This document shows, one piece after another, positions 24,754-64,000 of a DNA stretch of 64,000 nucleotides. The translations under genes were made by a program, and so were the position numbers. The number at the start of each line of letters is the position of its first letter. Position 1 is the first letter of the stretch. The notes under the pieces are model-generated. The model made no database searches, was not told the origin of the DNA, and saw only the letters and a list, made by a program, of their open reading frames with translations. Origin of the DNA: Flavobacteriales bacterium (GTDB lineage Bacteria > Bacteroidota > Bacteroidia > Palsa-965); assembly GCA_040377305.1 (NCBI GenBank), contig JBEIPA010000004.1:32001-96000 (forward strand), written 5' to 3'.

Positions 24754-24797
24754 TGCTCCCCCTTCTGGACTTGAACCAGAGACCCCATGATTAACAG
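24754..24797 (-). repeat. att site: 3' half of tRNA-Asn(GUU)
   Basis: Minus strand reads CTGTTAATCATGGGGTCTCTGGTTCAAGTCCAGAAGGGGGAGCA: anticodon loop, T arm and 3' acceptor strand. The D arm and 5' half are absent. Confidence 0.88.
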
Positions 24798-34897: not shown

Positions 34898-34919
34898 TTT
34901 GCAGGGGCTTATTTTTCGC

Positions 34920-36365: not shown

Positions 36366-36378
36366 TGTTGTTCGGAGA

Positions 36379-36570: not shown

Positions 36571-36980
36571 CGATAAATGTTTGTGAAGAAAATTGAATCA
36601 GCGCTGTTGAGCCAAATGTAGAATTGCCGCTATATACAACGCAAGATTTATACACCGATTAAAAACACCAGTATAAAACCAGCCATTACCCCCGTAAAAA
36701 CACCTGTAAAACCCCGTATAAATACGGGGGTATATTTACGCTTATATACTTTAATTAGTTAACAACTAGCAATTTGCATGTTGCGTATGATTTTCCATTT
36801 TTATTGGGAATTAAATATGAGTGAAGGGCCTTTTAATATACTGTCATTGCTAGTTGATAATTGAATTATGTTTGCTTTGCTGATAGTTCAGAAGCCACTG
36901 CACCTGCCAAGAGTTAAGATGCCGCCGAAATCTCAAGGATTCCGTGGTATAGTTTTGTTCAATCCCTATTGATCGTAATA

Positions 36981-40431: not shown

Positions 40432-40446
40432 AATAAACGTCGACAA

Positions 40447-40890: not shown

Positions 40891-40984
40891 TCCTGTAATT
40901 AGGCAAGCAACGAAAAACGAGTTCTCGCTCTCATCCTCTTGCCCGCCATGAATAACTTCAATATCCTTTATGCTCTCCGGAACT

Positions 40985-42751: not shown

Positions 42752-42754
42752 TGT

Positions 42755-43552
42755 CTATTGTAATCCTTTAACTATGTAACGTAACATGAAATATGCGTGC
42801 TCGTACGCCCCCATATACGGAGGCGTTGGCTCAACCTCACCGTGAAATAACATGCATCGCAGCGTATAAAGCATTTTTATACATGCCTTCGCGACAGTAG
42901 TTGGGTCATTAATAAAACGAACAGAGTCGGTTGGGTCCAATACAATGTAGTCGCCTTTAGTCTTCGACGATGCAACCAGATCAATCGCTTTGTGCGGATC
43001 GATCGCCTCAAAACAATTCAGTATTTTCTCCTGTATTTTTCGGTCTGTAATCTTAATAAAGTCCACATCTCGCTTTAGATCTTCAATATCATAGGGTGAT
43101 TTTCGGAAATCGACAAAAGTCTTGTTGTTCTTATCGACAGCGACCATTTCAAAATATGACTGCTTGTTTTCCGCTTTGAAAGCATTGCCTTCTTTATCCG
43201 TCGCGTTGGCAAACTTCTTGGGATTCTCGCTGAGATAAATACGCTTGAATGTTTGTCGCACACCGCAGTGATGAAACGGCCTCGTCTCTAAAAATATGTG
43301 GAGTTGCGCAAGCCGATGCCGAAACTCCTTGGCCTCATAGCTGTCGGAGCGAAGCAACGATTCAAAAATCATTCGCGGTTTACTGCTGGTACTGTCTTGC
43401 AGTTCTTTAATAAGCTTGCTGTCATTTCTATTATGCTGTGGCATCTCAGCAACGTACCACGCGTTGAAAGGAATCCACGCGCGGATGAAAATCATGAAGT
43501 AGTCCGGCTCCGATTGGCGAATCCAGTGATCAATGTTGCCGCGAAAGGTCAT
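42755..43552 (-). CDS. HEPN-like RNase
   Basis: N-terminal FIRAWIPFNAWY and RxxxxH motif YTLRCMLFHGE. Confidence 0.72.
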   Translation of the reverse strand: MTFRGNIDHWIRQSEPDYFMIFIRAWIPFNAWYVAEMPQHNRNDSKLIKELQDSTSSKPRMIFESLLRSDSYEAKEFRHRLAQLHIFLETRPFHHCGVRQTFKRIYLSENPKKFANATDKEGNAFKAENKQSYFEMVAVDKNNKTFVDFRKSPYDIEDLKRDVDFIKITDRKIQEKILNCFEAIDPHKAIDLVASSKTKGDYIVLDPTDSVRFINDPTTVAKACIKMLYTLRCMLFHGEVEPTPPYMGAYEHAYFMLRYIVKGLQ

Positions 43553-43775
43553 AGGAAATTGTATCTACGTGATGATTGAGGGAGTGTAAGCAACACACAT
43601 AAATACGTCTTTTTACTTAATGTTTTTGCAGCGGGACGTAAAAACTGACAAGAAATTCAGCTTTTTTACCATCCAAATCTCGGTATCATCAAGGTTTTAT
43701 TCACAGATCTAATATTTCAGTAAAAGAAATGCACCGATCCCATATCTTCGTTAGTAACGCTGAATAACTAAAACT

Positions 43776-44828
43776 ATGCTGGATTTTTCTCGGGCACAAC
43801 TCGCCGCCGTTGTATTTCACAAAATAGGTACGAAAGCCAAAGGGGACGAAAGTTTTTTTTCCAAGGAACTGTTCACGCCGAGCGAAGACCTGACCCAATC
43901 CTTGCTTGAATATTTCCTACTGCCATTCAGGAGCATTAATGACCAATACAAGTTTCATCACTCCTCAAGTCTCGACTATAATGAAGTATATAATTACGCG
44001 AGAAAATCCTTTGAACGCAGTAATACGTTTCTGAACAGATCCGTTGATATCGCAAAGCACCTCTATGATCAGTCGGAACATCCAGGGATTAAAAGCGGTG
44101 AACTTGCAATTGTTTTGTTTACGAATGTAATCTACGAAACGCAAGAAATGGATGCGATAGGCATTTATAAATCAGAGCGAAAGGATACATTTTTCCAATT
44201 CAAGAAGGGTGAGGAGAAACTGACAGTAAGTACCAGCCAAGGAGTCAATGCAAAAAAACTTGATAAGGCGGCGCTGATAGTGAACGCTGATTTGGACGAC
44301 GGATTAAGAGTGTTCTGCATCGACAACAATAATTATGATACCGAATATTGGAAAGATAAGTTTCTCAATATCACGGATGCAAGGGATGCCAACTATCAGA
44401 CGAAGAATTACATCGGCCTGTGTAAGAGTTTTTCTGCCGAAGTTATCGAACCATCATTGGGAAGGAGAGAAGGAATTGCATTTCTCAATCACTCGCTGAA
44501 GTACATGCAGGACAATGAATCACTAGAGCTCGATGACTTTGCCAATACCGTCTTACGCGACCAGGGTTTGGAAAAGGACTTCAAGAAGTACAAACGAACA
44601 TTCGAGAAAGAGAACGATGTCGCGATCGAAGAAGATTTTGAGATATCCAAGCCAACCCTCCGCCAACAAAAGAAAAAAATCAAAAGTGAGATAACACTGG
44701 ACACTCAAATTCAAATAAAATTGGGGCCTACTGCAACTGAAAATGGAGAGGAGTTTATAGAGCGGGGCTACGATGAGAAGCGAAAAATGTTCTTCTATAA
44801 AGTGTTCTTCAATAACGAAACAGACTAA
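43776..44828 (+). CDS. Nucleoid-associated protein (NdpA/YejK, NA-37 family)
   Basis: FHKIG, LYDQSEHPGIKSGEL, IGIYKSE, KLDKAALI and YWKDKFL. Confidence 0.85.
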   Translation: MLDFSRAQLAAVVFHKIGTKAKGDESFFSKELFTPSEDLTQSLLEYFLLPFRSINDQYKFHHSSSLDYNEVYNYARKSFERSNTFLNRSVDIAKHLYDQSEHPGIKSGELAIVLFTNVIYETQEMDAIGIYKSERKDTFFQFKKGEEKLTVSTSQGVNAKKLDKAALIVNADLDDGLRVFCIDNNNYDTEYWKDKFLNITDARDANYQTKNYIGLCKSFSAEVIEPSLGRREGIAFLNHSLKYMQDNESLELDDFANTVLRDQGLEKDFKKYKRTFEKENDVAIEEDFEISKPTLRQQKKKIKSEITLDTQIQIKLGPTATENGEEFIERGYDEKRKMFFYKVFFNNETD

Positions 44829-44848
44829 CCAACCCAACCCCTATACAT

Positions 44849-45718
44849 ATGGCTACCAAGCACAGGACAATCAATTTTTATACGCTGATTAAAACAGAAC
44901 ACGACTCTAAGGAAGAATCTCCAGCGGCGTACATTCGTGATGTAATTAATTACATTCAAACGTTAGACAATGAGCAGCGTTGTGTTGACCTGACACGTCA
45001 AAAATTCTGCTACCTGCATCGAATTACAAAGACAGGGAATGATAAGCATACATTGATCTTTAAATCAGCAAAAAGCGAATATCGCCCACCCCTCATGAAC
45101 AGAAAAACTGTCGAGCGCGAGAATCCTAAGCGCATGGATGAAGGGGATGGAGAAAAGACCCATCTCATTATCAAATACACAAAAAACGACGTGTTCGTTG
45201 TATTGGAGAAAAATGGAAATGGCGTACAAATCAACGCCATTGTCAAATACCTAAAAAGGTATACAAGGGCATACCTAAAGGCACAAAAACTAAAGTTGAC
45301 ATTTTCGATGGACGCGTATGCGATGGCAAAGGAGAATTTTCTTGTTGAAGTGAAAAAATTGAAGCGTGTATCTATTGGTGAGGTATATGTGGAAAAATCC
45401 ATCCTTGGATCTGATGCGCTTAACTTTTCAAACCGCACGCAATCAATAAAGCACGATATCATTCTTAAGATGAGCGCAGAGCGCGACAACTCCATTCTCG
45501 GTCCGATTGAAGATATGTTCAATAAAATGGGCAGCAAGGGGTCAAGAATTACTAAAATTCGCGTTACGGGAAAGACCAAGACCGGAAATGAAATAGTACT
45601 GGACACGAAGTTCATTGAAAAAATGGAAGGTGTTGAATCGGAATTAAATGCGCTCACCGGCGAAGTGAATACTCCAGTAATGCTGGAAGCGCTCAGGGAG
45701 ATTGCTAATCCGCTCTAG
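44849..45718 (+). CDS. Hypothetical protein (DUF6731/DUF4747/KwaB-like, tentative)
   Basis: 289-aa soluble protein directly upstream of a TM gene; family recalled from overall pattern only. Confidence 0.5.
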   Translation: MATKHRTINFYTLIKTEHDSKEESPAAYIRDVINYIQTLDNEQRCVDLTRQKFCYLHRITKTGNDKHTLIFKSAKSEYRPPLMNRKTVERENPKRMDEGDGEKTHLIIKYTKNDVFVVLEKNGNGVQINAIVKYLKRYTRAYLKAQKLKLTFSMDAYAMAKENFLVEVKKLKRVSIGEVYVEKSILGSDALNFSNRTQSIKHDIILKMSAERDNSILGPIEDMFNKMGSKGSRITKIRVTGKTKTGNEIVLDTKFIEKMEGVESELNALTGEVNTPVMLEALREIANPL

Positions 45719-45719
45719 C

Positions 45720-46247
45720 ATGTATGCGGAGTTTATTTTGATCCTATTTGATTACTTCAGGACACTGAAGTTCAGAAACTTTGTGTTCGAGATTGTCATC
45801 CCGCTGATCGGTGCAATTTTAATCTTCCTGCTGGGTCGACAATATTTGTATGTCGACCTTCGACAGCTGACTAAGGATTTCGGAGATACGACTATCACAC
45901 TTCTCGGTGTTTTGATCGGATTCTCGATAACCGTCATCACGATCATGCACACGAGTGGTAATAAGAATATCGAACAGATCAAGAAAAAAAATACGGACTT
46001 TAAAATTGGCAGCAATACCGTGACTCTGTTTCAGCTTGTGCTGATCAATCATACGTACTCGGTAATACTTGAAGTACTCTGTTTGATAGCCAACCTAATA
46101 CTATTCTTAGTGTGGGCAAAAGTACCAGGGCCTCACTTGAAATATTGGCTGAGTATCAATCTATTTTTTGTCCTGCACATTCTACTGCTTAATGTCCGAA
46201 ATATGGCGGACTTCTACTGGATCATGTTTCGCAAGGAATCAAATTAA
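45720..46247 (+). CDS. 4-TM membrane protein
   Basis: Four hydrophobic helices, including LLGVLIGFSITVITI. Confidence 0.75.
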   Translation: MYAEFILILFDYFRTLKFRNFVFEIVIPLIGAILIFLLGRQYLYVDLRQLTKDFGDTTITLLGVLIGFSITVITIMHTSGNKNIEQIKKKNTDFKIGSNTVTLFQLVLINHTYSVILEVLCLIANLILFLVWAKVPGPHLKYWLSINLFFVLHILLLNVRNMADFYWIMFRKESN

Positions 46248-46279
46248 ATCCTTAATTGCCACTCAGAATCGCACTTGCT

Positions 46280-47353
46280 ATGGAAATTACCATTGATGTA
46301 TTTAATGTCGGCGATGGCGATGCCATTCTCGTGCACCTAAGTAAGAACGGCGATCATCTCGTCATGGTTATTGATGCTGGCGATCCAAAGCGCTATGCAG
46401 AAAAGATGCGTGCGCCTCTACAAGAGCTTTTGCGAGAGACGAAGAAGAAGGCCCCTGATGTCGTTGTTTGCTCTCACTATGATCTCGATCACCTAGGCGG
46501 TCTAGTACAACTGGTAGAGGAGTATGGGTCGAGTATCGGGGAAATATGGATGCATAAGGCCCCAGTCGTGTTCGACAATAAGCAGTTCTGGAAGGATGAC
46601 GTATTGAATGAAATGCTTCTGACACTTGATAAGCCGTACGACTTGGTGCTAGAAAAGGAAATAGCTAAGCTTGCACCTCAACTGCCCACTGCGCTTGTTC
46701 TTGAGCAAGCACGAAAAGCGCGCGAGTTTAGTGATACGCTCAAACGCTTTTTGCGTATCGTTCCGCACAATAAAATACGACCGATATTTCATGGCACCTC
46801 ATTGCTGAAAGAATGGCCCGAAGTAAAAATCCTTGGCCCAACCAAGAAATACTTCGATGAGCTTTTCCCTCCTGGAGAAAAAATGGAGCAGTTCATCGCC
46901 TTAGAAGCTATCGCTACCTACGAGGGAACTGCGCTACGATTGCTTACGCAAGAACATGTTGAAAAGATGGTCAAGGTATTTCACGACCGTCCATGCGACA
47001 TTTTAAAAATCAAAAGTCCTAGCAGCCTCACCAGAACCAATAAGGCTAGTATTATCCTTGCGATAGATGTAGCGGAAAATAAACGGTGCCTTTTTACTGG
47101 TGATGCAGGCATCTGCTCCTTCGAAGAAATACCAAATTATGAAAAAGAACTCAAGGACTTATACTGGTTGAAAATACCGCACCATGGCAGTAACAACAAT
47201 ATGTCAAAGCGTCTAGCTGAAATTATGCGTCCAGTATATGCGGATTGCACTGGAAGGGCACATCAAGACGATGAAGTGCTAGAGTGCCTGCGAATGAAAA
47301 AAACGAAAGTGAGAAGCACGAAGGACGGATACGCTCTCAGATTCCCGTATTGA
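46280..47353 (+). CDS. ComEC/Rec2-type metallo-beta-lactamase-fold hydrolase
   Basis: NVGDGDA, IDAG, SHYDLDHLGG, FTGDAG and KIPHHGS. Confidence 0.88.
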   Translation: MEITIDVFNVGDGDAILVHLSKNGDHLVMVIDAGDPKRYAEKMRAPLQELLRETKKKAPDVVVCSHYDLDHLGGLVQLVEEYGSSIGEIWMHKAPVVFDNKQFWKDDVLNEMLLTLDKPYDLVLEKEIAKLAPQLPTALVLEQARKAREFSDTLKRFLRIVPHNKIRPIFHGTSLLKEWPEVKILGPTKKYFDELFPPGEKMEQFIALEAIATYEGTALRLLTQEHVEKMVKVFHDRPCDILKIKSPSSLTRTNKASIILAIDVAENKRCLFTGDAGICSFEEIPNYEKELKDLYWLKIPHHGSNNNMSKRLAEIMRPVYADCTGRAHQDDEVLECLRMKKTKVRSTKDGYALRFPY

Positions 47354-51829: not shown

Positions 51830-52123
51830 TTAAAAATCCATCAATTCCGCTACTGTTGTATCTAACGCGGTAGCCAATATGAAGAGGCTGGCAATGCCGG
51901 TCTCGTAGTGCCCCTTCTCGATGCGGTTAACCGTCGTTCTGCTCAACCCCGTCTCAAAAGCAAGCTGACCTTGCGACAACCCTTCCTTCTCACGCAACTT
52001 GCGCAAGTGATTTCCGAACGCCTCCAGGAACGGCTTTGTTTCACCCGCAGAGTGCTTGCTTACGCGCACGGATTTCTTCGCCTTCTTGGCTGTTTTTGCG
52101 CCCCCTGTTTTCTTTCTGTTCAC
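51830..52123 (-). CDS. XRE-family HTH regulator (controller-protein-like)
   Basis: FGNHLRKLREKEGLSQGQLAFETGLSRTTVNRIEKG. Confidence 0.88.
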   Translation of the reverse strand: MNRKKTGGAKTAKKAKKSVRVSKHSAGETKPFLEAFGNHLRKLREKEGLSQGQLAFETGLSRTTVNRIEKGHYETGIASLFILATALDTTVAELMDF

Positions 52124-52155
52124 GTTTGGAAAGTACAGACAGTGAAAATTTAAGC

Positions 52156-52191
52156 TGTGCCAAGTTTGGCACATGTGCCATATTTGCTACA
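52156..52191. promoter_or_regulatory. Tandem operator
   Basis: TGTGCCAA-GT-TTGGCACA followed directly by the degenerate copy TGTGCCATATTTGCTACA. Confidence 0.6.
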
Positions 52192-52210
52192 TTAGCGTAA
52201 ACAGCAATCG

Positions 52211-52945
52211 GTGAGGATAGTCATCCTTTTAACAGTGAGTCTAGTCTTCGCGTGCAATGCGCACGTGACACTCCCGCACGTGGCAATATTCTCCACTGTC
52301 GAGCCCCTCATGCGCTCCGACACCACCCACACCGGTTTCTTCACCAACGTATCGCTCTTCGATACCGCTTACGATGAAATAAAGTATGTAACAACACAGG
52401 GAAACATTTATGTTCCCAATGAAGGCTCGCAGAATTTCCTCCTCTGTAGATACGATACCGCCACCTTGCAACCTATCTGGGTTGCAGTTGGCGGTGGTCG
52501 TGGCGGCGATGGTGGATGCAACTACTACACAGTACCACCGGAGAACGCGGTGTATGTCGTCGGCTATTTCGAAGACACGGCATACTTTCCGCATCGTGCC
52601 GGGATGCTAGTGTGCGACACACTCATAAGCAACGGCATGGCAGATATGTTCATCGCCAAGTATTCATACAGCAATGGAGTACTGCTGTGGTGCAGATCCG
52701 CCGGAAGTAAATATTCCGATATCATCTTCACCGACAACCTGGGCGCACGACATCAGGAAACAATACTGATTGTTGATAGTGTGCACATCACTGTATATGC
52801 AAACTTCTTTGGCCCCTTACGTATCGGCGACCAATCAGTTAATGCATCACTGTCCGGTTCGGCAGTGCAGATAAGCTTTGATAAGAAAACGGGTGCAGTG
52901 CGTGAAGCGCAGATTCCTACAGTATTGCCGGATGACAAAAAATAG
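52211..52945 (+). CDS. Lipoprotein with SBBP-like beta-propeller blades
   Basis: Lipobox VFAC; VYVVGYF and DMFIAKY...G.LLW.RSAG. Confidence 0.65.
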   Translation: MRIVILLTVSLVFACNAHVTLPHVAIFSTVEPLMRSDTTHTGFFTNVSLFDTAYDEIKYVTTQGNIYVPNEGSQNFLLCRYDTATLQPIWVAVGGGRGGDGGCNYYTVPPENAVYVVGYFEDTAYFPHRAGMLVCDTLISNGMADMFIAKYSYSNGVLLWCRSAGSKYSDIIFTDNLGARHQETILIVDSVHITVYANFFGPLRIGDQSVNASLSGSAVQISFDKKTGAVREAQIPTVLPDDKK

Positions 52946-53005
52946 CAGACGAGTACACTGGTAACACTTCGTCTTTCAAACCCATGAGATCAAAAAGAGT
53001 GAGCA

Positions 53006-53236
53006 CTATTGAAACACAAAGAATTCGCCAATCTGAACGTCAAGAGCTTTCGCGATATGAAATAGCGTTTCGGCTGTCGGGTTCTGTTCGCCGCGCTCGA
53101 TCAGCCCGATCGCTTCACGCCGTAACCCTGCCTCATAGGCGAGTTGATCCTGCGAAATTCCCTGGGCTTTGCGTAGTCCCCGCAGTTTGCGCCCGAGCTT
53201 CTTAAGAAATGCACGTGATTGTTTATCCGACTTCAC
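53006..53236 (-). CDS. XRE-family HTH regulator
   Basis: LGRKLRGLRKAQGISQDQLAYEAGL...IERGEQNPT. Confidence 0.9.
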   Translation of the reverse strand: MKSDKQSRAFLKKLGRKLRGLRKAQGISQDQLAYEAGLRREAIGLIERGEQNPTAETLFHIAKALDVQIGEFFVFQ

Positions 53237-53333
53237 ATGTCAAAAATCCCATCCCAAATTCAAACAAAAGAGCTATTTACCGCTCTATATACATTTAATT
53301 GATATATTTATCACTCTTTTCAAAAACAAACCT

Positions 53334-54044
53334 ATGAAACCCACTTTTCTCCTCTTTGCATTGTGCTTCTTGCTATCGGCATGCTCCGATCCCGACTACA
53401 CCGGCTTGTGGTTCATGCGCGGTCACAACGTCTGGATCACTATCACGCACGAAGACAACATCTTCCAAGTGGCCGGACCATTCGCATTCAATGGCGGGTA
53501 TGTACTCGATGACCAAGGCCGGATAGTCAATTTGAAAGTAGATAGTGCGCAGTTCGAATATGATGCGGCAAAGGACATCCTCACGTGGCACGGCAACAAG
53601 CGCTGGACGCACAGCGAAGTCTTCGAACGTCCCGAGGCTGCTGGTAAAACAACAGATGAAATCGAAAACTATGAGGGATCGATTGTCGAATGCTCCGAGG
53701 CCGAAGCCTATCCCGACACGAACGGTCTTGAAGGCACGTGGACGGCACAGTTCGATTTCTATGCTGGGTTTGAAACGGCAACACTCGTTATTCGCCGGCA
53801 TGAACCGAGCGATACCTGCGGCGAATATCAATGCACGTGGTGGACTTCAAATGCTGGCTCAAACAAAACCGTGTACAAATGGTGCGGGCACATGAACACC
53901 GGTGTGCTGGAAGCCGACATGCAGATGAGCAAACGGCAGGCCCGCATGTACGCAGTCAAGCAAGAGAACGGTACGCTCTCGGTATCCTTCTTATATGAGT
54001 CAGCTCAATATCTGCCATGGCGGTTAGAGTTCAGTAAAAAATAG
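53334..54044 (+). CDS. Lipoprotein with two lipocalin-like repeats
   Basis: Lipobox LSAC; YTGLW and LEGTW strands. Confidence 0.65.
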   Translation: MKPTFLLFALCFLLSACSDPDYTGLWFMRGHNVWITITHEDNIFQVAGPFAFNGGYVLDDQGRIVNLKVDSAQFEYDAAKDILTWHGNKRWTHSEVFERPEAAGKTTDEIENYEGSIVECSEAEAYPDTNGLEGTWTAQFDFYAGFETATLVIRRHEPSDTCGEYQCTWWTSNAGSNKTVYKWCGHMNTGVLEADMQMSKRQARMYAVKQENGTLSVSFLYESAQYLPWRLEFSKK

Positions 54045-54389
54045 TTCGGAAAGCAATACATACCACTTGCAAACTAAAATCACGCACTCATTAAAATAAT
54101 TTGACTTCACCAACGTTTCTGCCATACATTGCAGAAATTCTAAAACATCTCTATCCGGTGCCGCTATACTCCCCCTCATAGTGGGGCACTGGAAGACAGA
54201 AGTGCACGAGTGACGCGCATTCCCGCCCAACTCTACTTCTGTCACGCATTAAGACTGTGGAGAAGGCAGGTGCCGAGAGAGAAGAACGAACATATCGTAG
54301 TGTAATACCCTTGGCGTACATCTTCGGATGCATGCCCGCGTTGTCGTATTCAATAAAAACCTGAAGTATAAATCAATACCTACCCACCA

Positions 54390-57300
54390 ATGAAACAAAA
54401 ACTCAAACGAGCAAAGCAACTGTTCTTGCTAGCCTCAATCGGTATGGCCTCGATGCTAACCGAGAAAGTTGCAGCCCAAACCTGCGCAACACCGATGACA
54501 CTACCCATTGATACCTGTACTACGTACTCAGTCAATGATTCTGTGGTATGGTTGACTTTTAATTCCGGCGCCGGCGCTTCTTGGTGCAATATTACGCTCT
54601 CCGTTCCGTCAGGTGGACCCAATACAATTGTCGCTGGCGAACTGTACTCTGGAACGTGTACATCGTTGAGTTTGGAGCAAATTTCAATGAATGATATAGG
54701 AACAATCCTTATTAATGGGAATATCACTGCATCTACGACATATCTCGTAAAAGTAATTCGATCGAGTGCGACCAGTGGACAAATAGAAGTTTGCCTAAAC
54801 GTGCTCACTACCATTGCTCCATGTCCCACATGTACTCCCACGGCGTGTCAGTTGATTTGTAATCCGAACTTAGAGTTGTACTCTGGAGCGAACAATCAAG
54901 GTCCTGCCAATTTTGGTGGTGGCAATGTTTGTAACTGGGGCGTGCCAAATATGTCGCCGCCAAATCCTAATTTTCCGCCAAATGCTGGAACAGCAGATTA
55001 CTTTAACTCGAACTTCACAAATACATGGCTTGATCTTACAGGTTTCCCCGGCTCAGAACCTGCACATTCTGGAAATGGCTATGGTGGGATTTATTGTTAT
55101 GCCAGTACCATGCCGCTATATCGTGAATTTATTCAGCAGCAACTTCAAGCGCCATTAGTTCAGTTTCAATCATACACCTTAAGATTCTGGATTAGCCTAG
55201 CGGATGCATCGGGCTTCGCGGTCAATGATATTGGCGCATATATTTCTACTACCCAACCAGTGCAATCGCCAAATCCCTCTGTCCTGAATTTTACTCCGCA
55301 AATTACTGCCGGAACTGTAACAACGATCAATGGTTGGGTGCAAATCACTGGCACGTACGTTGCAACTGGAGGAGAGCAGTGGATTACTATCGGCTCTTTC
55401 GGCAACTCTCAAGTAGCAACTCCCGTTCCGATCCCTCCGCCTTTTCAATTAGCTGGCCCATATCCAGCGCCACTGCTTACTAACCCAAATCTCGGGGCGT
55501 ATTATTTCATTGATGACATTACCTTGGAATATTCACCGGCACCGTCATTCACGTGGAGCGGAACCTGTAGAATCAATTTCACTAATAACCTAGACTGCAT
55601 TGATCCCACTGCCCCAAATGCATATACATGGGACTTCGGTGATGGGAGTCCGATAAATACCACTGAGAATCCTACGCACACCTTTCCACTAAATGGACAT
55701 CAGTACACCGTAACACATACCATTACGACACCAAACGGGAATGTTTATACGTATACCGCTATTGTTATTCAACCAGGAGGTCCTATTGCTAACATTGTTG
55801 GCTATGCAACGAACAATTGCGGCGCTGGGACGATTGGGTATACAGCGACTCCTTGTGATCCTAATATTCAATACAGTTGGGTTGTAAGTGGTGGCACACC
55901 TATCTCTGGCATCGGTTGCAACATCAACGTAGATTGGGGCGGTCAAGGAGGCTTTATTTATTTAACCGCGTTCGATCCGATAAATGATTGTACTACCCGC
56001 GACACCTTGGAAATACCTCCTTGTTGCCACGGTCCCGGTTTGCGAATTGATAACATGACAGCATCGCAGGCGCTTAGCGATCCGTTGATTCTTCCTTTTG
56101 TGACAGGTGGAAATACCATTACATATCCGAATAATATATTTATTACGGGTGTCTTCACCGTTGACGTTCCCATCACGTTCCTGAATTGCCCGATGATAAA
56201 CATTGGAGGAAATACACCGATCCTGGTCAATCCCGGGCAGACACTGACATTCGATGACTGCACGACAGAAGTACTGTGTGACTACATGTGGGACGGCATC
56301 TACTTGGCAAACGTCACATCTACGGCAAACATTATCAACGGCTCCGTATTGCAACAAGCAAAAAACACAGTTGTCTCAAACAGCGGAGGCCGATACACAA
56401 TCGTAAATTCAACTTTGCAGAATAACTACAGGGACATCGTAGTTAACGCATACTTGGGTACGCATCCAGGAGTAGTGCGCGGTACTGATTTTCTGATGAA
56501 CAGTCCATTCCTTACTGCAGTGCCTGCCTTTCCTTTCGGACACAACAAGACGATCTGTGCAATCGAAATCTACGATAACGCAGACATTACTTTCGGAGAT
56601 GCTACAATAATTGCTAATCGTAACCGCTTCAACAATGTTGCTGTTGGGGTGCGATCCAACAACTCTAATACAAAAGTGATTAACGCGCGCTTCAATAACA
56701 TGAGTGGCAACATCAATATTCCCAACGCGGGAACAGGTGTCGTAGCAAACGGTCAGAAGAACGTAACGTATCAAGCGGCAATAGTCGTTGGCGGGACCGG
56801 ATTAAACAAGTGCGTATTTACTACCATGAGAATCGGGGTCGATGTTTACGACATCGTTAATGTGAATGTCCTTAATAACAATATCTCGGAAATTCGTTTG
56901 TATGGAGTTCGATTGCAAAGATGCCATCAGCGTGTGATCAACATCAATGACAATCTGATGACCAATGCATCTGTTACCTACGGATTCAACACCGGATTCC
57001 TGTTGCTTGAATGTTATGACGCAACTGTTAACATCAATTCAAATACGATACTGCAGACTAACACTGTCGCTGGGCAAGTTGGAACTGGTATTCGTGTGGC
57101 TCTAGTAACGCCTGGTAACGTAATTCTGAATATAGTAAACAACGTCTCGGTCGCACGAGTGCGGACGGGTATTCTGTTAGAACGCCTTATCGGAAAGGAT
57201 CTTGTTTACGTCACCAACAACACAATCAGCTTTGTAAAACCGAATGCGAACTACACGGTTCCGCATCATGGTGTGCATTTGGTTGATTGCGGTGGCAAGG

Positions 57301-58538
57301 TTCGCGTCGAGTACAACATCATTCAGAAAAGCGCACCGATCCCTACAACTTTCGGCATGCGGAATAATCTGCGTGGTGTAACTATTCAAAACAGCCCAAC
57401 CAGTATTGTCGCGCACAATACAATCACGCGCATGGGCACCGGAATATATGGTCAGGGGATCAGCAGTAACAGCACACTCGCGTGCAACACCCTTGTTCGA
57501 TGCTTTGACGGATTCTACTTCCTGCCAGGGTGTGATATTGGCGATCAGGTCATCAATCCAACAAACGGGAATCCAACTCCAACGGGAAATATCTGGACAA
57601 GTTCCATTAACTCGGATTTGAACGGTGGGATTTTCCCGGGAATTTTCTGGTACAGAGATGCATCATATTCACCAGTTGTGGCTGGAACGATGGTGGGTGG
57701 AAGTTTGAATGGGGCAGGTAATACAACCACATTATCTGGCAATCCATCTGCTTGTACAATCATCCCTCTCTTTGCACCGCCAGCCATTGATCGCGAGCAA
57801 AATGCAGGGGTTCCGGTTCTGAATCCAACGCCCACTCCGGGCAGCGAACAAGGCTATATTGTGCGACAGAAAGCGCATCAGAAATTGCGCGAAGTACCGT
57901 CGTGGATGACGCTCGGAACGCCTCAAGATTCGCTGTATACGAACTTCTACATGGAGCAAGACAATAGCAACATCGGGCTTTTCCGTAACTTCGAGGATAT
58001 GGCAGCCGTAGATAGTGCAGTATTGGCAGGCGCGATCCTCGGAACTATCGTTGATACTAACGTGTCTGAAACAAACCTCAAAACTGTGTACTCAATCTAT
58101 CAGCAGACTTGGATGCAGGGCGTAAATGAGTTCAGCGCTGCAGACAGCATGACTCTTGAGAATATCGCGGTGCAGCCGTCAGCAGACGCAGGTGAAGCAG
58201 TTTACGCGGCTCGTGTAATGCTTGCGATTCAAGTTGATGACGATGCGCCGAGTGGCGAACGTTACGGTGCTGAAATGGAAGAAGAATCCATAAGCACAAT
58301 GGAGATTTTTCCGAATCCTGCAACAAACCAAGTGACAATAAACCCAAATCTCGCGGAGAACCAGTCGGGCGTTGTAGAGGTTTCTGACGTTCAGGGCAAG
58401 ATCGTTCTGTCTAAGCCGGTGACTGCTGGAAGCACGACACTTGATGTATCAGGTCTTGATAACGGGCTGTACTTCGTCCAGTTGATTGTTGATGGAGAAT
58501 TAGTCGAGACGAATAAGTTAGAAATAGTACACGAATAA
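54390..58538 (+). CDS. Large T9SS-secreted protein (CBM-like, PKD and parallel beta-helix domains, type A CTD)
   Basis: Signal peptide, YTWDFGDG, Asn-rich beta-helix repeats and IFPNPA...GLYFV. Confidence 0.88.
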   Translation: MKQKLKRAKQLFLLASIGMASMLTEKVAAQTCATPMTLPIDTCTTYSVNDSVVWLTFNSGAGASWCNITLSVPSGGPNTIVAGELYSGTCTSLSLEQISMNDIGTILINGNITASTTYLVKVIRSSATSGQIEVCLNVLTTIAPCPTCTPTACQLICNPNLELYSGANNQGPANFGGGNVCNWGVPNMSPPNPNFPPNAGTADYFNSNFTNTWLDLTGFPGSEPAHSGNGYGGIYCYASTMPLYREFIQQQLQAPLVQFQSYTLRFWISLADASGFAVNDIGAYISTTQPVQSPNPSVLNFTPQITAGTVTTINGWVQITGTYVATGGEQWITIGSFGNSQVATPVPIPPPFQLAGPYPAPLLTNPNLGAYYFIDDITLEYSPAPSFTWSGTCRINFTNNLDCIDPTAPNAYTWDFGDGSPINTTENPTHTFPLNGHQYTVTHTITTPNGNVYTYTAIVIQPGGPIANIVGYATNNCGAGTIGYTATPCDPNIQYSWVVSGGTPISGIGCNINVDWGGQGGFIYLTAFDPINDCTTRDTLEIPPCCHGPGLRIDNMTASQALSDPLILPFVTGGNTITYPNNIFITGVFTVDVPITFLNCPMINIGGNTPILVNPGQTLTFDDCTTEVLCDYMWDGIYLANVTSTANIINGSVLQQAKNTVVSNSGGRYTIVNSTLQNNYRDIVVNAYLGTHPGVVRGTDFLMNSPFLTAVPAFPFGHNKTICAIEIYDNADITFGDATIIANRNRFNNVAVGVRSNNSNTKVINARFNNMSGNINIPNAGTGVVANGQKNVTYQAAIVVGGTGLNKCVFTTMRIGVDVYDIVNVNVLNNNISEIRLYGVRLQRCHQRVININDNLMTNASVTYGFNTGFLLLECYDATVNINSNTILQTNTVAGQVGTGIRVALVTPGNVILNIVNNVSVARVRTGILLERLIGKDLVYVTNNTISFVKPNANYTVPHHGVHLVDCGGKVRVEYNIIQKSAPIPTTFGMRNNLRGVTIQNSPTSIVAHNTITRMGTGIYGQGISSNSTLACNTLVRCFDGFYFLPGCDIGDQVINPTNGNPTPTGNIWTSSINSDLNGGIFPGIFWYRDASYSPVVAGTMVGGSLNGAGNTTTLSGNPSACTIIPLFAPPAIDREQNAGVPVLNPTPTPGSEQGYIVRQKAHQKLREVPSWMTLGTPQDSLYTNFYMEQDNSNIGLFRNFEDMAAVDSAVLAGAILGTIVDTNVSETNLKTVYSIYQQTWMQGVNEFSAADSMTLENIAVQPSADAGEAVYAARVMLAIQVDDDAPSGERYGAEMEEESISTMEIFPNPATNQVTINPNLAENQSGVVEVSDVQGKIVLSKPVTAGSTTLDVSGLDNGLYFVQLIVDGELVETNKLEIVHE

Positions 58539-58545
58539 CAAATTG

Positions 58546-58576
58546 GTCCCGCCCGTCAAAAACGGGCGGGACTTTT
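58546..58576 (+). terminator. Intrinsic terminator or processing hairpin
   Basis: GTCCCGCCCGT/ACGGGCGGGAC followed by TTTT. Confidence 0.7.
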
Positions 58577-58579
58577 ACA

Positions 58580-59542
58580 ATGCGAACGGTTAAAGTTTTA
58601 TTCGCAATAGTGCTCGCTCGATCCCTTCTCGGATCGGTAGCTAACGCGTATGGTCAGAACCTCGTACCTAATCCAAGTTTTGAAAATTTTGATACGTGTC
58701 CATTGTATACAGCACAATTTTATCGCTGCGACATATGGGAAAACCCAACGAGTAATACGCCGGACTATTTCAATGAGTGCTGGAACGAAGGATGGTATGA
58801 CAGCCCTGACGTGCCGATAAATCGGTTTGGTTCAGAACCTGCACGGACAGGTCAAGCGTATGCAGGACTATATTGTCAGTATAGTGGTGTGAATGGCCGT
58901 GAGTACATTTCTGTAAAACTGAATGATACATTGGTTGCGGGCAGTAGGTATTGTGTTGAGTTTTTTGTCACGCTGGGCGATTCGACATGGGGAGGCATAA
59001 ATTACATGGGAGCACATTTCTCCGCTGTGCCTGATACGATGTCTGACTACTATTTTAACCTACCATTCCAACCACAAATAGAAGACACCACGGTCATAAC
59101 AGATACAACAGGATGGGTGAAGATAAGCGGGACGTTTATCGCGCAAGGCGGCGAGACCTATATGACGATAGGTGTATTCAAACCAGATTCAATGCTTACC
59201 TATGATTCTATACAAGGTGACGGCTCAGTCCGATACACTTATTACTTCATTGACGACGTGGCAGTTTGGAATTGCGATACTGCTACTCCCACCTATCCGA
59301 ACTTCACCCTGTTTCCGAATCCATCGAATGGAGAATTTTATATCAGTGGAAATTTCCCAGAAGCAACACATTTGCTCATCTACAACATGCTCGGTCAGAA
59401 AATAGGCGAATCAATTGCGCTGCCGACAGGGCACAATTTATTCTCCATCAATTTGGAACTCGCGCAAGGAGTGTATTACTATGAAATAGTTTCTCCTACC
59501 GAACAACTTACCGAAGGAAAATTTGTCATCCTAAAATACTAG
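58580..59542 (+). CDS. T9SS-secreted protein, homologous to the N-terminal domain of the upstream gene
   Basis: QNLVPNPSFE, TPDYFN, GREY, GWVKISGTF.A.GGE, YYFIDDV and FPNPS. Confidence 0.85.
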   Translation: MRTVKVLFAIVLARSLLGSVANAYGQNLVPNPSFENFDTCPLYTAQFYRCDIWENPTSNTPDYFNECWNEGWYDSPDVPINRFGSEPARTGQAYAGLYCQYSGVNGREYISVKLNDTLVAGSRYCVEFFVTLGDSTWGGINYMGAHFSAVPDTMSDYYFNLPFQPQIEDTTVITDTTGWVKISGTFIAQGGETYMTIGVFKPDSMLTYDSIQGDGSVRYTYYFIDDVAVWNCDTATPTYPNFTLFPNPSNGEFYISGNFPEATHLLIYNMLGQKIGESIALPTGHNLFSINLELAQGVYYYEIVSPTEQLTEGKFVILKY

Positions 59543-59547
59543 AAAGC

Positions 59548-59916
59548 ATGGCCTCAATTGACTTTCGATTCACGACCGAGAAACCGCTAGTGCTAATTCG
59601 AGGATTGCGCCTTCAATTTTTGAAAATGCATATCGCAACAGGAAAAATCGACGACGTGTATTTCCGCTTTCTCTGGAAAGAAAAGGATGACAAGAATGAC
59701 GGAGACCCCATTTCGCACTACAAGGACATTGGACTGAACTCCTATGTCCACCCATATCAGGCGAAATCAGAAACTGATTTTGAATTTCGCGACTATGACC
59801 CCAGACCTATGGTTCGCTTTGAGGAGAACTTAGGTGGCGTTAGTATCGCAGCAATATCCAAAAGCAACACACCTTTTGATGTCACGGCACATGTAGTTAT
59901 TGACGATTCCGAATAA
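59548..59916 (+). CDS. Hypothetical protein
   Basis: 122-aa ORF starting 5 nt after the upstream stop codon. Confidence 0.5.
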   Translation: MASIDFRFTTEKPLVLIRGLRLQFLKMHIATGKIDDVYFRFLWKEKDDKNDGDPISHYKDIGLNSYVHPYQAKSETDFEFRDYDPRPMVRFEENLGGVSIAAISKSNTPFDVTAHVVIDDSE

Positions 59917-59934
59917 CAGTTCTGTTCTTCTCCG

Positions 59935-60099
59935 TTACTGAGAGTTGGATAGTATTATCCAAGTGCAGGAAATCAATGCTACAGCTGCAATTACCGCAAG
60001 CGCGACGTACATTCCTTTTTTCGAAGGGTTTGTGAGTTCAAAGTGAAAAGTATTCTCACTTACAGTCACAATCATCTTTTCTTGTTTAGGTGTGTTCAT
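59935..60099 (-). CDS. 54-aa single-TM peptide
   Basis: My translation: MNTPKQEKMIVTVSENTFHFELTNPSKKGMYVALAVIAAVALISCTWIILSNSQ. Confidence 0.4.
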   Translation of the reverse strand: MNTPKQEKMIVTVSENTFHFELTNPSKKGMYVALAVIAAVALISCTWIILSNSQ

Positions 60100-60250
60100 A
60101 TGTCATATTTTGTACGGTGCTATTATTTTAATTTGCGAGCACATTCAAAAATAAATTTCAACTTTTTGCGAATTATTTGAGAATAAACGCGAGTTGTGAC
60201 TGTATAACGGCTCTCGATATTCTCCCTGCGGTGTATCGTATCTTTGTTCC

Positions 60251-61411
60251 ATGACGAAAGAACTTAATGTTCTCATAGGTGCAGGATTCTCATTTAAGGC
60301 GGGACTACCGCTCGGAAATGACATTCGCGCGAGTTTTGATCGGCCACTACGCAATGAGCTTCTGAAGATGTCCTCGAGCGAATGGCTGTGGGCAGAACGC
60401 CAAGATCACGCCACGCAACACAACGGCAGATTGAACTACGATCACCTGGAGTACTCGTTTATCATGGAGGAAATAGTGAAAACGTACAAAGCGGCTTCGA
60501 ACGACGAATTCATAGATTACGAAGACTTTTATCAGTACGTAAAAGATAATACAGTTGTTGAGGGGTGGTACGAGGGAATCATTCAGACAGCAGAAGAAAG
60601 ATTCTACGCCGAAACAAATAGCAAACGAGATAGCGGATATGGAGGTTTTTCATTTAGACATCCGGAGAGATACCGACCACAAGAAATCATCAATCATTTG
60701 ATTTCTGATATGTTGTGGTCAAATAAAACAGACGATCAATTAGTTCAAGAGTATTATCCATTCGTCCAATTCTTGAAGAAGTATGAATCAGTTACCATCT
60801 TTACCCTTAACCATGACATGATACTTGAGCGCTTGTTCAGGCTTCTTGATATCCCATATTGCGATGGCTTTTCTACTGAAGGGTCCGAATTAAAGTATGG
60901 AGACAAATTTCTCCATAGTTTTCAGAATGATTTTTCATCGGCGAGAATAAAACTCGTGAAATTACATGGCAGTATTGACATGTATCTCTTTGAACACGGC
61001 ACCGAGCAGGGCGTGACTATGACCCGCGACGGTCACTATACTTATTTCAAACCTAAGGGGTACCACGAAAAACATCATGTGCAACGAGTTGATCTGAAGA
61101 CTGGTGAAACAGTTCAACATATGAATTTTGATGTCATTCCTAAGTTTATAACCGGTAAAAATAAATTGGCGTTCATACAGTCCGACTATATGTATTCGAA
61201 GTTGCACCAGATGTACCAACAGAATATACAATCAGGAAATGATTTATTGGTTATTGGATATTCCTATCGTGATGAGCACATGAACGCGGAGCTCAAAAAT
61301 TTTGATGTGGCAGGCACTCAGAATATCGTCAACGTCAATCCGGGAACTCAATTCCCATTTGACGCTCCAAGCATGAGGCAGATTTCCGATTTATCGGAAC
61401 TGCCCATATAA
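60251..61411 (+). CDS. SIR2-like (SIR2_2) domain protein
   Basis: LIGAGFS, FTLNHD, KLHGS and VIGYSYRDEH. Confidence 0.88.
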   Translation: MTKELNVLIGAGFSFKAGLPLGNDIRASFDRPLRNELLKMSSSEWLWAERQDHATQHNGRLNYDHLEYSFIMEEIVKTYKAASNDEFIDYEDFYQYVKDNTVVEGWYEGIIQTAEERFYAETNSKRDSGYGGFSFRHPERYRPQEIINHLISDMLWSNKTDDQLVQEYYPFVQFLKKYESVTIFTLNHDMILERLFRLLDIPYCDGFSTEGSELKYGDKFLHSFQNDFSSARIKLVKLHGSIDMYLFEHGTEQGVTMTRDGHYTYFKPKGYHEKHHVQRVDLKTGETVQHMNFDVIPKFITGKNKLAFIQSDYMYSKLHQMYQQNIQSGNDLLVIGYSYRDEHMNAELKNFDVAGTQNIVNVNPGTQFPFDAPSMRQISDLSELPI

Positions 61412-61427
61412 ACAAGCGAAACTCACA

Positions 61428-61456
61428 TTGACTTGAGGAGATGCACGGTATATACT
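61428..61456 (+). promoter_or_regulatory. Canonical sigma70-type promoter
   Basis: TTGACT-N17-TATACT. Confidence 0.6.
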
Positions 61457-61462
61457 TGATTT

Positions 61463-61676
61463 AGGTCAATTACAAATCAATATATACCCATTGCTCCCAA
61501 AGGAGCGTTCCGAAAGGAATCGAGTCAACAATGGATATTGCGATCGCATAGCCGCGCTTTAGATTTACTTTATCTGAGAATGTGCTATGCTTCCTCTCGT
61601 CCCCACGTAAGTAGGGACTAGTTTCTGGTCAAACAGAAATGAAAGCAATCTCCCGCTGTTGACTCGGCGGGTTTTT
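61463..61676 (+). ncRNA. Structured leader/ncRNA candidate ending in an intrinsic terminator
   Basis: Multiple hairpins with GNRA loops, a terminator at 61652-61676 and a 10-nt complement at 61521-61530. Confidence 0.6.
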
Positions 61677-61683
61677 GCGTTTT

Positions 61684-62616
61684 ATGAAAGTAAAAGAACT
61701 CTACCAAGCATTTATCTCAGATTGCGAATACAGTGGCCTCGCGCCAAGCACGACAGCAGAACATGCCGCGATGCTTAAAAGAATAATTATTCCGGCTCTC
61801 GGAGAACTTGAGCTAACTGAACTGCTTCCAATACATGTAAATGAGATTACACGCGTCGCTAAATCACATGCGAAGAGCGTGCACCGTCATGCTGTCCTTA
61901 CCTTCCGACGATTAATCCGACTCGCTAAAAAACATCGATGGCCGGTGGGCATAGAGACCGACGAAGTGGAGATACCGGTCTACAGACAACAAGCTGATGT
62001 CTGTGCGTGGTCAAAAAAAGACATCGCGCAGATCCGCGAGATATTGTCGCGCGACTACTCCAAAGAATTCAGCAAACATGTTCCTGCTCGAGAGCGGCTC
62101 GGACATCAGTTCGCAATGAGGCGAACGTCGTGTCTGTTTGAGGTGTTGTTACACTCCGGTATTCGACTATCGGAAGCGCTAAGCGTGAACACTAAGAATA
62201 TCAACTGGGAGAAGTCTGAAATGAGCGTCGAAGATTGTAAAGAACCAGGGAAGTGGAAAACCGTGTATCTGCACGGCGCACTTGAATCAATCCGCTCATA
62301 TCTTTCAATCCGCACGGACAGCGACCCTGCGCTTTTTGTCTCCATGCACGGGCAGCGTTTGTTATACAATACCGCGCAAACCACGCTCCGAAGAATCAAG
62401 GCGCGCCTCAGAAATGCCAATGAGCAAATTGGTGTGCTTAATCACAAGACCTGTCGTTCAACATTCATCACAACTCCGCTAAGGCAGGGAATAGACCCTA
62501 AGATCGTGCAGAGTTTAGCGCATCATGCGAGCCTGCACATGACGCTCAACTACTACTACCGAATCGATAAAGAAAAAGTAAAGCCAATACACGAAGAAAT
62601 CTTTTCCACACTTTAA
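61684..62616 (+). CDS. Tyrosine recombinase/integrase (Xer-like size, no arm-binding domain)
   Basis: Catalytic residues GIRLSE, K (DCKE), HKTCR, AHH and NYY. Confidence 0.92.
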   Translation: MKVKELYQAFISDCEYSGLAPSTTAEHAAMLKRIIIPALGELELTELLPIHVNEITRVAKSHAKSVHRHAVLTFRRLIRLAKKHRWPVGIETDEVEIPVYRQQADVCAWSKKDIAQIREILSRDYSKEFSKHVPARERLGHQFAMRRTSCLFEVLLHSGIRLSEALSVNTKNINWEKSEMSVEDCKEPGKWKTVYLHGALESIRSYLSIRTDSDPALFVSMHGQRLLYNTAQTTLRRIKARLRNANEQIGVLNHKTCRSTFITTPLRQGIDPKIVQSLAHHASLHMTLNYYYRIDKEKVKPIHEEIFSTL

Positions 62617-62689
62617 ATGGAATCGCAACTTGCATGCTTCGAAAAGGCATACTACAATCTTCTCAGCAACTTTTCACTCTCTAATCGTG

Positions 62690-62762
62690 AGCCACCTCGC
62701 GGGCTCGAACCGCGGACCTACTGTTTACAAAACAGTTGCTCTACCAACTGAGCTAAGGTGGC
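62690..62762 (-). tRNA. tRNA-Thr(UGU)
   Basis: GCCACCTTAGCTCAGTTGGTAGAGCAACTGTTTTGTAAACAGTAGGTCCGCGGTTCGAGCCCGCGAGGTGGCT folds into a cloverleaf with anticodon TGT; CCA is not encoded. Confidence 0.95.
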
Positions 62763-62907
62763 ACTATATCATCCTAACATCGTGTGTCTGCTTCTGCTAT
62801 GCGGAAATGTAAGCGAGACCACACGCTAAACAAAAGGGTGGTCTCGGTTCAAGAGAAGAGAAGTTGCTATGTCGAGCCCCATTATCAAACAATAACACAT
62901 TAAATAC

Positions 62908-63147
62908 ATGCGTCACTTCAACGTATGCTCTCGGTCCGACTATATCGACCAGAGAGACGGTAAGCGTAAATTCAAATGGCTTCTAGCGGGTCACATGCGA
63001 GTCACAGACGTAGGTGGGCACTACTTAGTGCTCAATCATCAGCCTAACGTGCAATTTGAGCTCTTTGAGCAGCGTATAGAACCAAGCAAAGATCAAGCGG
63101 TCGATGTTACCAACGATAACGACCGGGAAGATCCGGATGTCCACTAA
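62908..63147 (+). CDS. Small beta-rich mobile-element protein
   Basis: 79 aa with an AT-rich leader and an acidic tail. Confidence 0.6.
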   Translation: MRHFNVCSRSDYIDQRDGKRKFKWLLAGHMRVTDVGGHYLVLNHQPNVQFELFEQRIEPSKDQAVDVTNDNDREDPDVH

Positions 63148-63430
63148 TCGTATGACTGATTCGTCAATCTCCGCAGCCGAGTTCCTTCCCAGGTCGCAGC
63201 GTCGAGCGATCAATAAATTCCTACGGACACTCGATAAACGCACGACGCGTTGCTGTCCCGCGTGCTTCGATTGCCGTCTGAAAATTACTCATGCGGCGCT
63301 CCTACTCGCCCAAGAACATGCCCTCCACCAGGAATCATGACGACACCATCCGGACAAGGATTATTCGCTTGATCACTGAGCACAGCTTACTTGCAACGAG
63401 CAACAACGTTATCAACCTAAACTCATATAC

Positions 63431-63934
63431 ATGGAACAAACAGATGCTAACCGCACCCAGCAAAAGTGGCTCTATCAAAAGCTGCTAAAGATTATTCCCA
63501 ATCTGCCCGAACATTTGCAGATGGGCATTATTGAACTCGAAGGAAAAGTTGAAGGAGACAGAACCCTCGATTTCTTCATGAGCAACAAAGAATCTGATGA
63601 CGTCTATTATATCGCCCTCGAACAAAACGACGAGGTAAAGTATGAAACTCGACTCGTTACCAATATGGAAGTCCGCATTTCACTGTCCGAGCAAACAGCA
63701 ATCCCACTCGCATACAAGAACAGTTACGAAGACATGCGAATAGATTTGGATGATCAAGGAAACACTGAACCTCAACGCGAGCACAAGCAGGAAGTGTACA
63801 CGCTATTCAAAACATGGCTCAAGAGTCTCGATCATCGCGGCTACCGCCTCGCACCCGAAACTACTGCAAACTCGCAGGAACAATCAGGAAGGAAAATGCC
63901 GCACGATGTATCAAGCAGTGTGCATGAGCGCTGA
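63431..63934 (+). CDS. DUF1249/DUF6908-like protein, paralogue of 25271-25795
   Basis: Aligns by eye: LYQKLLKIIPNL vs IYKKLMQLIPGL; KVEG vs RVEG; WLKSL...GY vs WLSTL...GH. Confidence 0.7.
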   Translation: MEQTDANRTQQKWLYQKLLKIIPNLPEHLQMGIIELEGKVEGDRTLDFFMSNKESDDVYYIALEQNDEVKYETRLVTNMEVRISLSEQTAIPLAYKNSYEDMRIDLDDQGNTEPQREHKQEVYTLFKTWLKSLDHRGYRLAPETTANSQEQSGRKMPHDVSSSVHER

Positions 63935-64000
63935 TACCACCCTGCTCCCATTGCATAGCATTGCTCTTTTCCGTCAGACAAGCAATCGCATTCTTCGTGC

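Follow-up and report, generated by a model that had tools for sequence, protein, structure and literature searches.

The window (the whole stretch of 64,000 nt that was analysed) carries, before a tyrosine recombinase gene, a leader RNA that represents, as judged by sequence comparison, a real, undescribed and portable leader RNA family, for which a function is predicted here. The leader with its long-range pairing is present in 18 loci, namely 6 phage contigs and 12 copies in 8 Bacteroidota genomes (two of them in the window's own genome), and in all 18 loci the strand exposed in a 5' stem can form 7-10 Watson-Crick pairs with the loop of a terminator-like hairpin. A mutually exclusive terminator and antiterminator in the 5' leader are predicted and covary across the 18 loci. 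We regard a cis switch of some kind as quite probable, and we put at about even the chance that it would be a default-ON transcription attenuator shut in trans by an internally made sense RNA. What would be new is a variant of RNA-controlled attenuation, likely a stop/go switch for brief recombinase synthesis.

The leader in the window

The promoter, the hairpins, the stems of domain 2, the terminator with its T tract and the spacing to the ATG, all described by an earlier sequence-only reading, were found where that reading had placed them (Table 1), with the recombinase ATG at 61684, 7 nt past the T tract. The 10-bp long-range complement that it had proposed (61521-61530/61657-61666) is exact and above chance within the window (P = 0.003, 1000 shuffles). 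The inverted repeat that it had noted at 61456-61480 is present as well, but its first letters fall within the -10 box, ahead of the expected transcription start, and none of the homologous leaders compared has an equivalent. The 231-nt leader region folds at -76.2 kcal/mol (z = -5.45; 0/200 shuffles equally stable), and in the minimum-energy fold the long-range helix already replaces the terminator. Beyond the earlier description, the long-range pairing extends into a full antiterminator, and a second promoter-like site, which the default promoter scan did not list, lies inside the leader. The scorer detects a TTGAC-type promoter upstream in 8 of the 9 later loci, and most of the first nine have one too; in these first nine, the distance from junction to terminator is 58-131 nt. 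The six letters of the terminator loop at 61659-61664 recur in the upstream -35 box; no matching -10 follows, and the identity is probably a coincidence.

Table 1. Features of the window around the leader and recombinase (positions in the window)
Feature	Position	Strand	Remark
43-bp tRNA-Asn-end repeat, left island end	24755..24797	.	other copy at C30:99500-99542
Upstream sigma-70-type promoter TTGACT-N17-TATACT	61428..61456	+	promoter scan, score 10/12
-35 box	61428-61433	+	upstream promoter
-10 box	61451-61456	+	upstream promoter
Leader RNA, window copy	61463-61676	+	upstream of tyrosine recombinase gene
Expected transcription start of long leader RNA	about 61463	+	
5' domain	61488..61534	+	stem P1 closing a three-way junction with hairpins P2 and P3
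Stem P1	61488-61493/61529-61534	+	
Hairpin P2	61494-61505	+	
Hairpin P3	61508-61519	+	
Junction (antiterminator) strand	61521..61530	+	complement of terminator region
Exposed core of junction strand	61523-61528	+	exact complement of terminator loop
Domain 2	61537..61649	+	variable multi-hairpin spacer, inside the antiterminator helix
Internal promoter-like site TTTACT-N16-TGn-TATGCT	61564..61591	+	putative
Predicted internal RNA, ~79 nt	start about 61598	+	predicted from the promoter-like site
Intrinsic-terminator-like hairpin	61652..61676	+	stem-loop 61652-61671
Terminator loop	61659-61664	+	
T tract	61672-61676	+	five T
310-aa tyrosine recombinase	61684..62616	+	core-binding and catalytic domain (PF00589)
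Sigma-70-like promoter TTGCAT-N17-TACAAT	62630..62658	+	after recombinase; by eye
tRNA-Thr(TGT)	62689..62762	-	differs from the host copy on C6
79-aa ORF	62908..63147	+	related ORFs behind the recombinase in several other copies

Covariation and distribution

Seventeen of the 18 pairing sequences (cores) differ between loci, and all four Watson-Crick pair types occur at three of the seven helix positions; as the 18 loci were selected for having the helix, the argument rests on controls. Eleven distinct loci were reached through the protein, and 8 of these (the window, L001, L002, L094, L096, L098, L101, L102) show a perfect complement of 7-10 bp joining the P1-enclosed strand with the loop of the 3' hairpin; no such pairing was found in the other three (L009, L097, L103). 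A gene-blind DNA pattern scan gave 36 viral hits, 4 of them with the two-hairpin junction, all preceding this recombinase family and including one new locus (L123), while 5 of the other 32 had a chance complement of 8-9 bp under a looser test, with neither two-hairpin junction nor recombinase. Among the non-cognate pairs of a 12-locus matrix, 0/132 reached 8 bp. In a separate energy comparison, the toehold duplex averaged -11.3 kcal/mol for cognate vs -3.2 kcal/mol for non-cognate pairs, and 10/306 non-cognate duplexes were as stable as the weakest cognate one. Under two automatic rules of hairpin picking, at least 7 bp were obtained in 7 and 8 of 12 loci (9 under either), the true terminator being overlooked in L096 and L098 by the first rule and in L101 by the second. 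The host-terminator null is small: of its 23 hairpins 2 reached 8 bp and none 10.

Further copies were found with a covariance model (R1) of the 5' domain alone, which carries no terminator information. Its search of 35 genomes of the order yielded 8 new hits, 7 with the complement and a downstream tyrosine recombinase, and one hit sits inside a transaldolase gene; with a fixed junction slice the R1 copies gave shuffle P values of 0.006-0.019 for six and 0.12 for one. The rebuilt model R2 added 4 hits, of which L194 and L197 are complete, L195 is false and L193, a 5' domain without terminator or gene, was not counted. The false model hits L185, L195, L199 and L200 were set aside before the count of 18, near-duplicates (L095, L099, L100/L112, L125, L136, L141, L155, L159, L161, L165, L170) were left out, and L160/L163 have an unrelated recombinase and no leader. 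L197 is the second leader copy in the window's genome (C46:63130-63184; locus C46:61908-63184). It precedes a 358-aa recombinase only 21% identical to the window enzyme and has a different pairing code, so the two copies would not cross-regulate. Within the 5' domain, 21 cells have both-side changes (0/500 shuffles), with P1 only 64% paired in the MAFFT alignment. The long-range pair covaries in 18 loci, the check for which the earlier reading had called.

With Rfam 15, only tRNA-Thr was found in the window and no credible match to the leader at E up to 10, the sole one being a chance snoRNA (17.6 bits); scans of the 17 further loci (8 + 9) returned tRNAs only. Rfam motifs tied to Xer or integrase genes would have shown up in these scans. 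The annotated phages and plasmids had no DNA match to the leader, a terminator-pattern scan of viral contigs gave 0 hits, and in 151 phylum-sample genomes the RNA model found the two copies of the window's own genome plus two weak hits, neither of them with pairing or a recombinase. No description of the motif was found in the literature outside subscription journals, including the accessible portions of PMC5737381 and PMC11109978; the 20,149 clusters of bioRxiv 10.64898/2026.10.21.760802 may include it. The earlier suggestion of an unclassified cis switch that would gate integrase expression is supported, as to the switch, by covariation in 18 loci, a constant 5' position and the lack of an Rfam match. 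The leader at L009:770-870, likewise before a family member, is of another kind, with alternative hairpins that overlap; it may be another attenuator design.

Competing folds and predicted attenuation

Four segments pair in alternative ways: 1 with 2 (P1) and 3 with 4 (terminator), or 2 with 3 (antiterminator). The 4-8-nt loop of the terminator is matched by the exposed portion of the junction strand. From there the helix can continue along the 3' strand of P1 into the 5' strand of the terminator, reaching 13-24 bp and ruling out P1 and terminator alike; among the 9 loci tested, this continuation past the core helix does better than shuffles in only 2. In transcripts cut at the loop end, folding predicts the helix with a probability of 0.89-0.99 in 18/18 loci. 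At equilibrium the terminator fold of the full-length leader wins in 14/18, and in the window the antiterminator is favoured by 9.1 kcal/mol, with segment limits set by hand and a program that scores no pseudoknotted or loop-kissed intact-terminator state. The predicted default read-through therefore rests on kinetics. As the terminator loop exits the polymerase, the exposed junction strand would capture it, and extension along the P1 3' strand would keep the terminator open, leading to synthesis of the recombinase. In loci whose hairpin reaches up to the start codon, translation would be gated by this switch as well.

The latter possibility can also be turned into a full explanation, namely a translational switch in which the 3' hairpin hides a Shine-Dalgarno-free start, the antiterminator frees it, and termination is incidental. 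The extended hairpin ends 3-7 nt before the ATG in 7/9 of the first loci, Shine-Dalgarno motifs are rare in the phage genomes, and the T tracts of the long-hairpin subgroup are weak, but L101 and L102 have a hairpin with a T tract that stops 64 and 31 nt, respectively, short of the ATG, and we consider this reading unlikely. A leader-peptide attenuator was rejected by eye: the ATG at 61531, within P1, becomes ACG, GCG, TTG, CTG, TCG or GTG elsewhere, and the start codon is not conserved.

ZTP and fluoride riboswitches have a pseudoknot-to-terminator topology, which the leader shares, and a riboswitch whose long-range pseudoknot is stabilised by a small ligand would also fit the junction A-U pair that recurs in 15/18 loci and the bulged U that recurs after P3 (by eye). 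Against such a pocket, only 4 of the 60 columns of the 5' domain are invariant (13 sequences), all in or beside stems; there is no Rfam match; and the junction hairpins P2 and P3 are both absent in L094 and L102 and reduced to one in L096 and L101. P2 and P3 can thus be dispensed with, as in L094 and L102, and we hold a ligand-binding function to be very unlikely.

Internal promoter and a candidate trans repressor

The idea of an internal promoter was formed on the first nine loci, in 6 of which an exact TATAAT lies in sense orientation between junction strand and terminator (0.55 expected). Internal sense promoters were enriched in these nine (Fisher P = 1.5e-5) and in the second set of nine (Fisher P = 0.005), values which are overstated because the loci are related. 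Antisense promoters in the same interval were not enriched (P = 0.84 and 0.13), with L189 as a single-locus exception (P = 0.014). In the window alone the internal promoter-like site has P = 0.05, and TG.TAT..T is invariant in 8/8 aligned island copies, the window included, with a TTTAyT-like box 16-17 nt upstream; the internal -10 also falls within an RNA stem. The long-terminator loci L002, L184, L187 and L189 have no internal promoter (P = 0.21-1.0) and a weak T tract.

An RNA of 50-110 nt, lacking the antiterminator, would be made from a promoter at this place, downstream of the junction strand, and would stop at the terminator with its loop left free; for the window, an RNA of ~79 nt is predicted, with its loop unpaired and a binding energy to the 5' domain of about -16 kcal/mol. 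Such a short RNA is a candidate trans repressor: once accumulated, it would bind the junction strand of new long transcripts, the terminator would form on these and expression would fall, and the outcome would be a burst of recombinase on arrival and silence afterwards.

The same cis attenuator might instead be toggled by a protein that binds P1 or domain 2 (the recombinase, the small helix-turn-helix gene after the recombinase in phages, or a host factor) or be a fixed leak set by folding kinetics. P1 is partly conserved across recombinases only 20-30% identical, four loci have no internal promoter, and helix-turn-helix-like small ORFs follow the recombinase in the phage loci (by eye); however, the P1 sequences in L101 and L102 are unrelated, and the internal promoter and the orthogonal pairing codes would be left unexplained. 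We judge a protein toggle or fixed leak somewhat improbable.

Independence of leader and recombinase

Leader similarity does not track recombinase identity (rho = -0.16, P = 0.07; 17 loci, L183 being left out because of gaps). Near-identical leader types stand before recombinases 21-24% identical, close recombinases have different leader types, and the leader of L002 is closest to those of recombinases 21-23% identical. The cassette stands before recombinases of at least three subfamilies.

These data bear on the proposal, made in the earlier reading, of a discrete non-coding RNA as partner of the recombinase, and on its variant as a guide RNA. The own promoter and terminator, the GNRA loops and an enzyme without an arm domain would suit it, and in L002 a 12-nt match to the downstream region was found (P = 0.01), but in the other 8/9 loci the leader had no match beyond chance to the 500 nt downstream of the gene, and leader types are uncoupled from recombinase relatedness. 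The features of a bridge-type RNA-guided recombinase, a loop-DNA match in these 500 nt and coevolution, were likewise not observed. We consider the proposal very unlikely; guide-RNA and small-ligand readings are both disfavoured by the lack of an att match, by the uncoupling of the leader from recombinase phylogeny and by the dispensable junction hairpins.

The attenuator with its sense repressor could be read further as a self-contained, protein-free recombination timer, in which a ~200-bp cassette would encode both the attenuator and its own repressor RNA with an orthogonal, portable loop code. Here the 7-10-nt hypervariable loops would make cassettes mutually orthogonal, as an immunity or incompatibility code, and they would be portable between three or more recombinase subfamilies that belong to phages and to small elements of CPR-like bacteria, with repeated carriage into Bacteroidota islands. 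We put this extended reading forward tentatively, as possible.

The recombinase and its attachment context

The recombinase scores 75.9 bits with PF00589 (cut-off 27.1) and conserves R161, K186, R258, H281 and Y291, the histidine position of HxxR being K, and H in many relatives. A weak helical core-binding domain starts at residue 3, and the best folds are XerA (5hxy, E = 1.4e-9), Tn1549 Int 82-397 and lambda Int 75-356. Domain search and fold matches agree with the earlier statement that the arm-binding domain is absent; the enzyme is an arm-less integrase-type enzyme, and differs from lambda-type integrases in that its 310 aa include no N-terminal arm-binding domain. Archaeal XerA and bacterial XerCD give its best profile and fold matches, but it is far below their curated cut-offs (220 or more), its best profile being NF040815 at 76.8 bits and every NCBIfam cut-off lying above its score, and it is an accessory gene of phages and islands, present in 3/35 genomes of the order and in 1/301 of the phylum sample (its own genome). 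Twenty close relatives have 39-71% identity, and 71 representatives were obtained at E 1e-30 or better; relatives lie in tailed-phage contigs between late and early genes. Among annotated phages and plasmids only distant recombinase proteins were found, a single-protein scan of viral contigs gave 13 pattern hits and no relative, and Atlas matches were generic phage integrase clusters only. Alignment scans gave mostly XerD-like or unrelated integrases (members: 2/8 genome, 1/41 metagenome and 0/35 viral loci).

In L094 and L096 the gene is followed by a promoter, similar to the one after the window recombinase, and then by the 3' half of a tRNA-Lys (45-57 nt), attP-like. A whole tRNA is near the gene in the window, L001 (other orientation) and L002; none was seen in the other loci. 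The 3' end of the window's tRNA-Thr faces the recombinase, as it would at an attachment junction, and no second copy of this end was found in the island. Because second recombinases are present in G339 and in the window's island, this enzyme remains the putative integrase for some loci. By eye, a dif-like reading was discarded, the arms being 31 nt apart. Upstream of tRNA-Thr, the sole promoter-like site (62763-62790, minus strand) abuts the 5' end of the tRNA gene, too close to transcribe the whole tRNA, which may therefore be silent.

Three further observations concern the neighbourhood. In L187, L188 and L197 a conserved non-coding hairpin stretch of ~150 nt lies 100-300 nt after the recombinase stop, a possible second structured RNA without Rfam match. 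L102, L123 and L182 share a short motif 250-420 nt after the stop, downstream of the post-recombinase promoter, a possible att core or operator. Predicted N-terminal extensions of P0002, P0003, P0013, P0014, P0018, P0029, P0048 and P0069 cross the terminator hairpin and have …GGCLYFM-like ends; extensions that read through the hairpin indicate mis-called starts, with the hairpin before the ATG across the wider family.

Relation to known systems

As described in PMC4878617, pT181 attenuators are default ON, with an antiterminator that sequesters the terminator 5' strand, and are turned OFF by an RNA kissing the 5' hairpin, the loop sequence setting the specificity. The leaders resemble them in the predicted default-ON antiterminator, the OFF state by RNA at the 5' hairpin and the loop-set specificity. 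They differ from them in that the pT181 regulator is a fully complementary antisense RNA and its target the plasmid Rep, whereas the leader's candidate is a sense RNA with the terminator loop and its target a recombinase; correspondingly, the leader loci show no enrichment of antisense promoters of the pT181 type (P = 0.84, 0.13).

Phage P4 CI RNA, to which the earlier reading had compared the leader, is, as described in PMC4825925, a sense RNA from a phage leader that pairs with the leader in trans and causes early termination, and the analogy is apt as a working model. Membership of the P4 CI type is a different matter: P4 CI is processed from the primary transcript, has two targets (seqA, seqC) and controls replication genes, whereas the leader has one target and a predicted internal promoter, precedes a recombinase and has no Rfam match. 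No second target appeared in the helix lists, which give one long-range complement per leader, and complementarity of a sense RNA to its own leader is present, the RNA being predicted from the promoter-like site. Gifsy-1 IsrK, described in the same paper, is likewise a short terminated RNA; its target, in trans, is the read-through transcript of the locus that encodes it, but it activates translation, whereas the leader model involves repression of read-through, and no sequence or Rfam similarity was found.

Arm-less integrases without a directionality factor are thought (PMC9262239) to be governed by the amount of integrase. Those of mycobacteriophages with integration-dependent immunity (Brujita integrase, 5vfz) target tRNA genes and have neither arm-type sites nor a directionality factor, as described there; they use ssrA-like proteolysis and an attP inside the repressor gene, neither of which was seen in the leader loci, where control appears, unlike the mycobacteriophage proteolysis, at the RNA leader. 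With an RNA attenuator, the amount of enzyme would be controlled in a new way, and this in phages whose lysogeny control has received little study. The family is moreover a natural set of 17 near-orthogonal terminator/antiterminator codes, and orthogonal codes from pT181 are hard to build in synthetic biology (PMC4878617). As the promoters are of the sigma-70 type, the design lends itself to direct tests in E. coli.

Host, island and origin

The host genome has 5.18 Mb and is rich in type IX secretion genes. The module lies inside an island of ~43 kb whose ends are marked by a 43-bp direct repeat of the tRNA-Asn end; the island also carries its own 468-aa integrase, a relaxase, a coupling protein and defence genes. 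One assembly contig, possibly from the source run, spans 52000-64000 without joint and at even depth. Defence-type cargo at 32864-47353 and 60251-61411 includes a TIR-domain protein, an OLD/Gabija-like ATPase with UvrD helicase, GmrSD, NA37 and a metallo-beta-lactamase-fold protein, and a SIR2-like gene is directly upstream of the leader.

The tRNA genes of the host have TAnnTTTG promoters (15/37 exact), the Bacteroidota consensus, which speak for a place of the genome in this phylum, and a sigma-70 score of 10 or more occurs in 0/37. Because sigma-70 promoters are foreign to this host, the window copy, which is island cargo, may be a silent passenger. In the phage genomes, Shine-Dalgarno motifs precede 1/18 to 3/19 long ORFs in four of five and 15/77 in the fifth; sigma-70 promoters together with scarce Shine-Dalgarno motifs, presumably traits of CPR hosts, suggest such hosts for the phage relatives. 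The 12 full leader copies with foreign sigma-70 promoters are distributed over 8/35 genomes of the order. The island setting suggests a capture hot spot for CPR-like DNA, and the repeated carriage of foreign modules in one Bacteroidota order hints at a flow of DNA with a putative origin in CPR-like bacteria or their phages.

In the four islands read (window/C30, G024:C3, G026:C19, G000:C46) the module directly follows two large type IX secretion cargo genes and is in most cases followed by an ORF of ~60-80 aa. Elsewhere, a cluster of 15 additional tRNA genes, all on the same strand and separate from the host set, lies at G000 C7:88552-97060 and is likely a mobile tRNA array.
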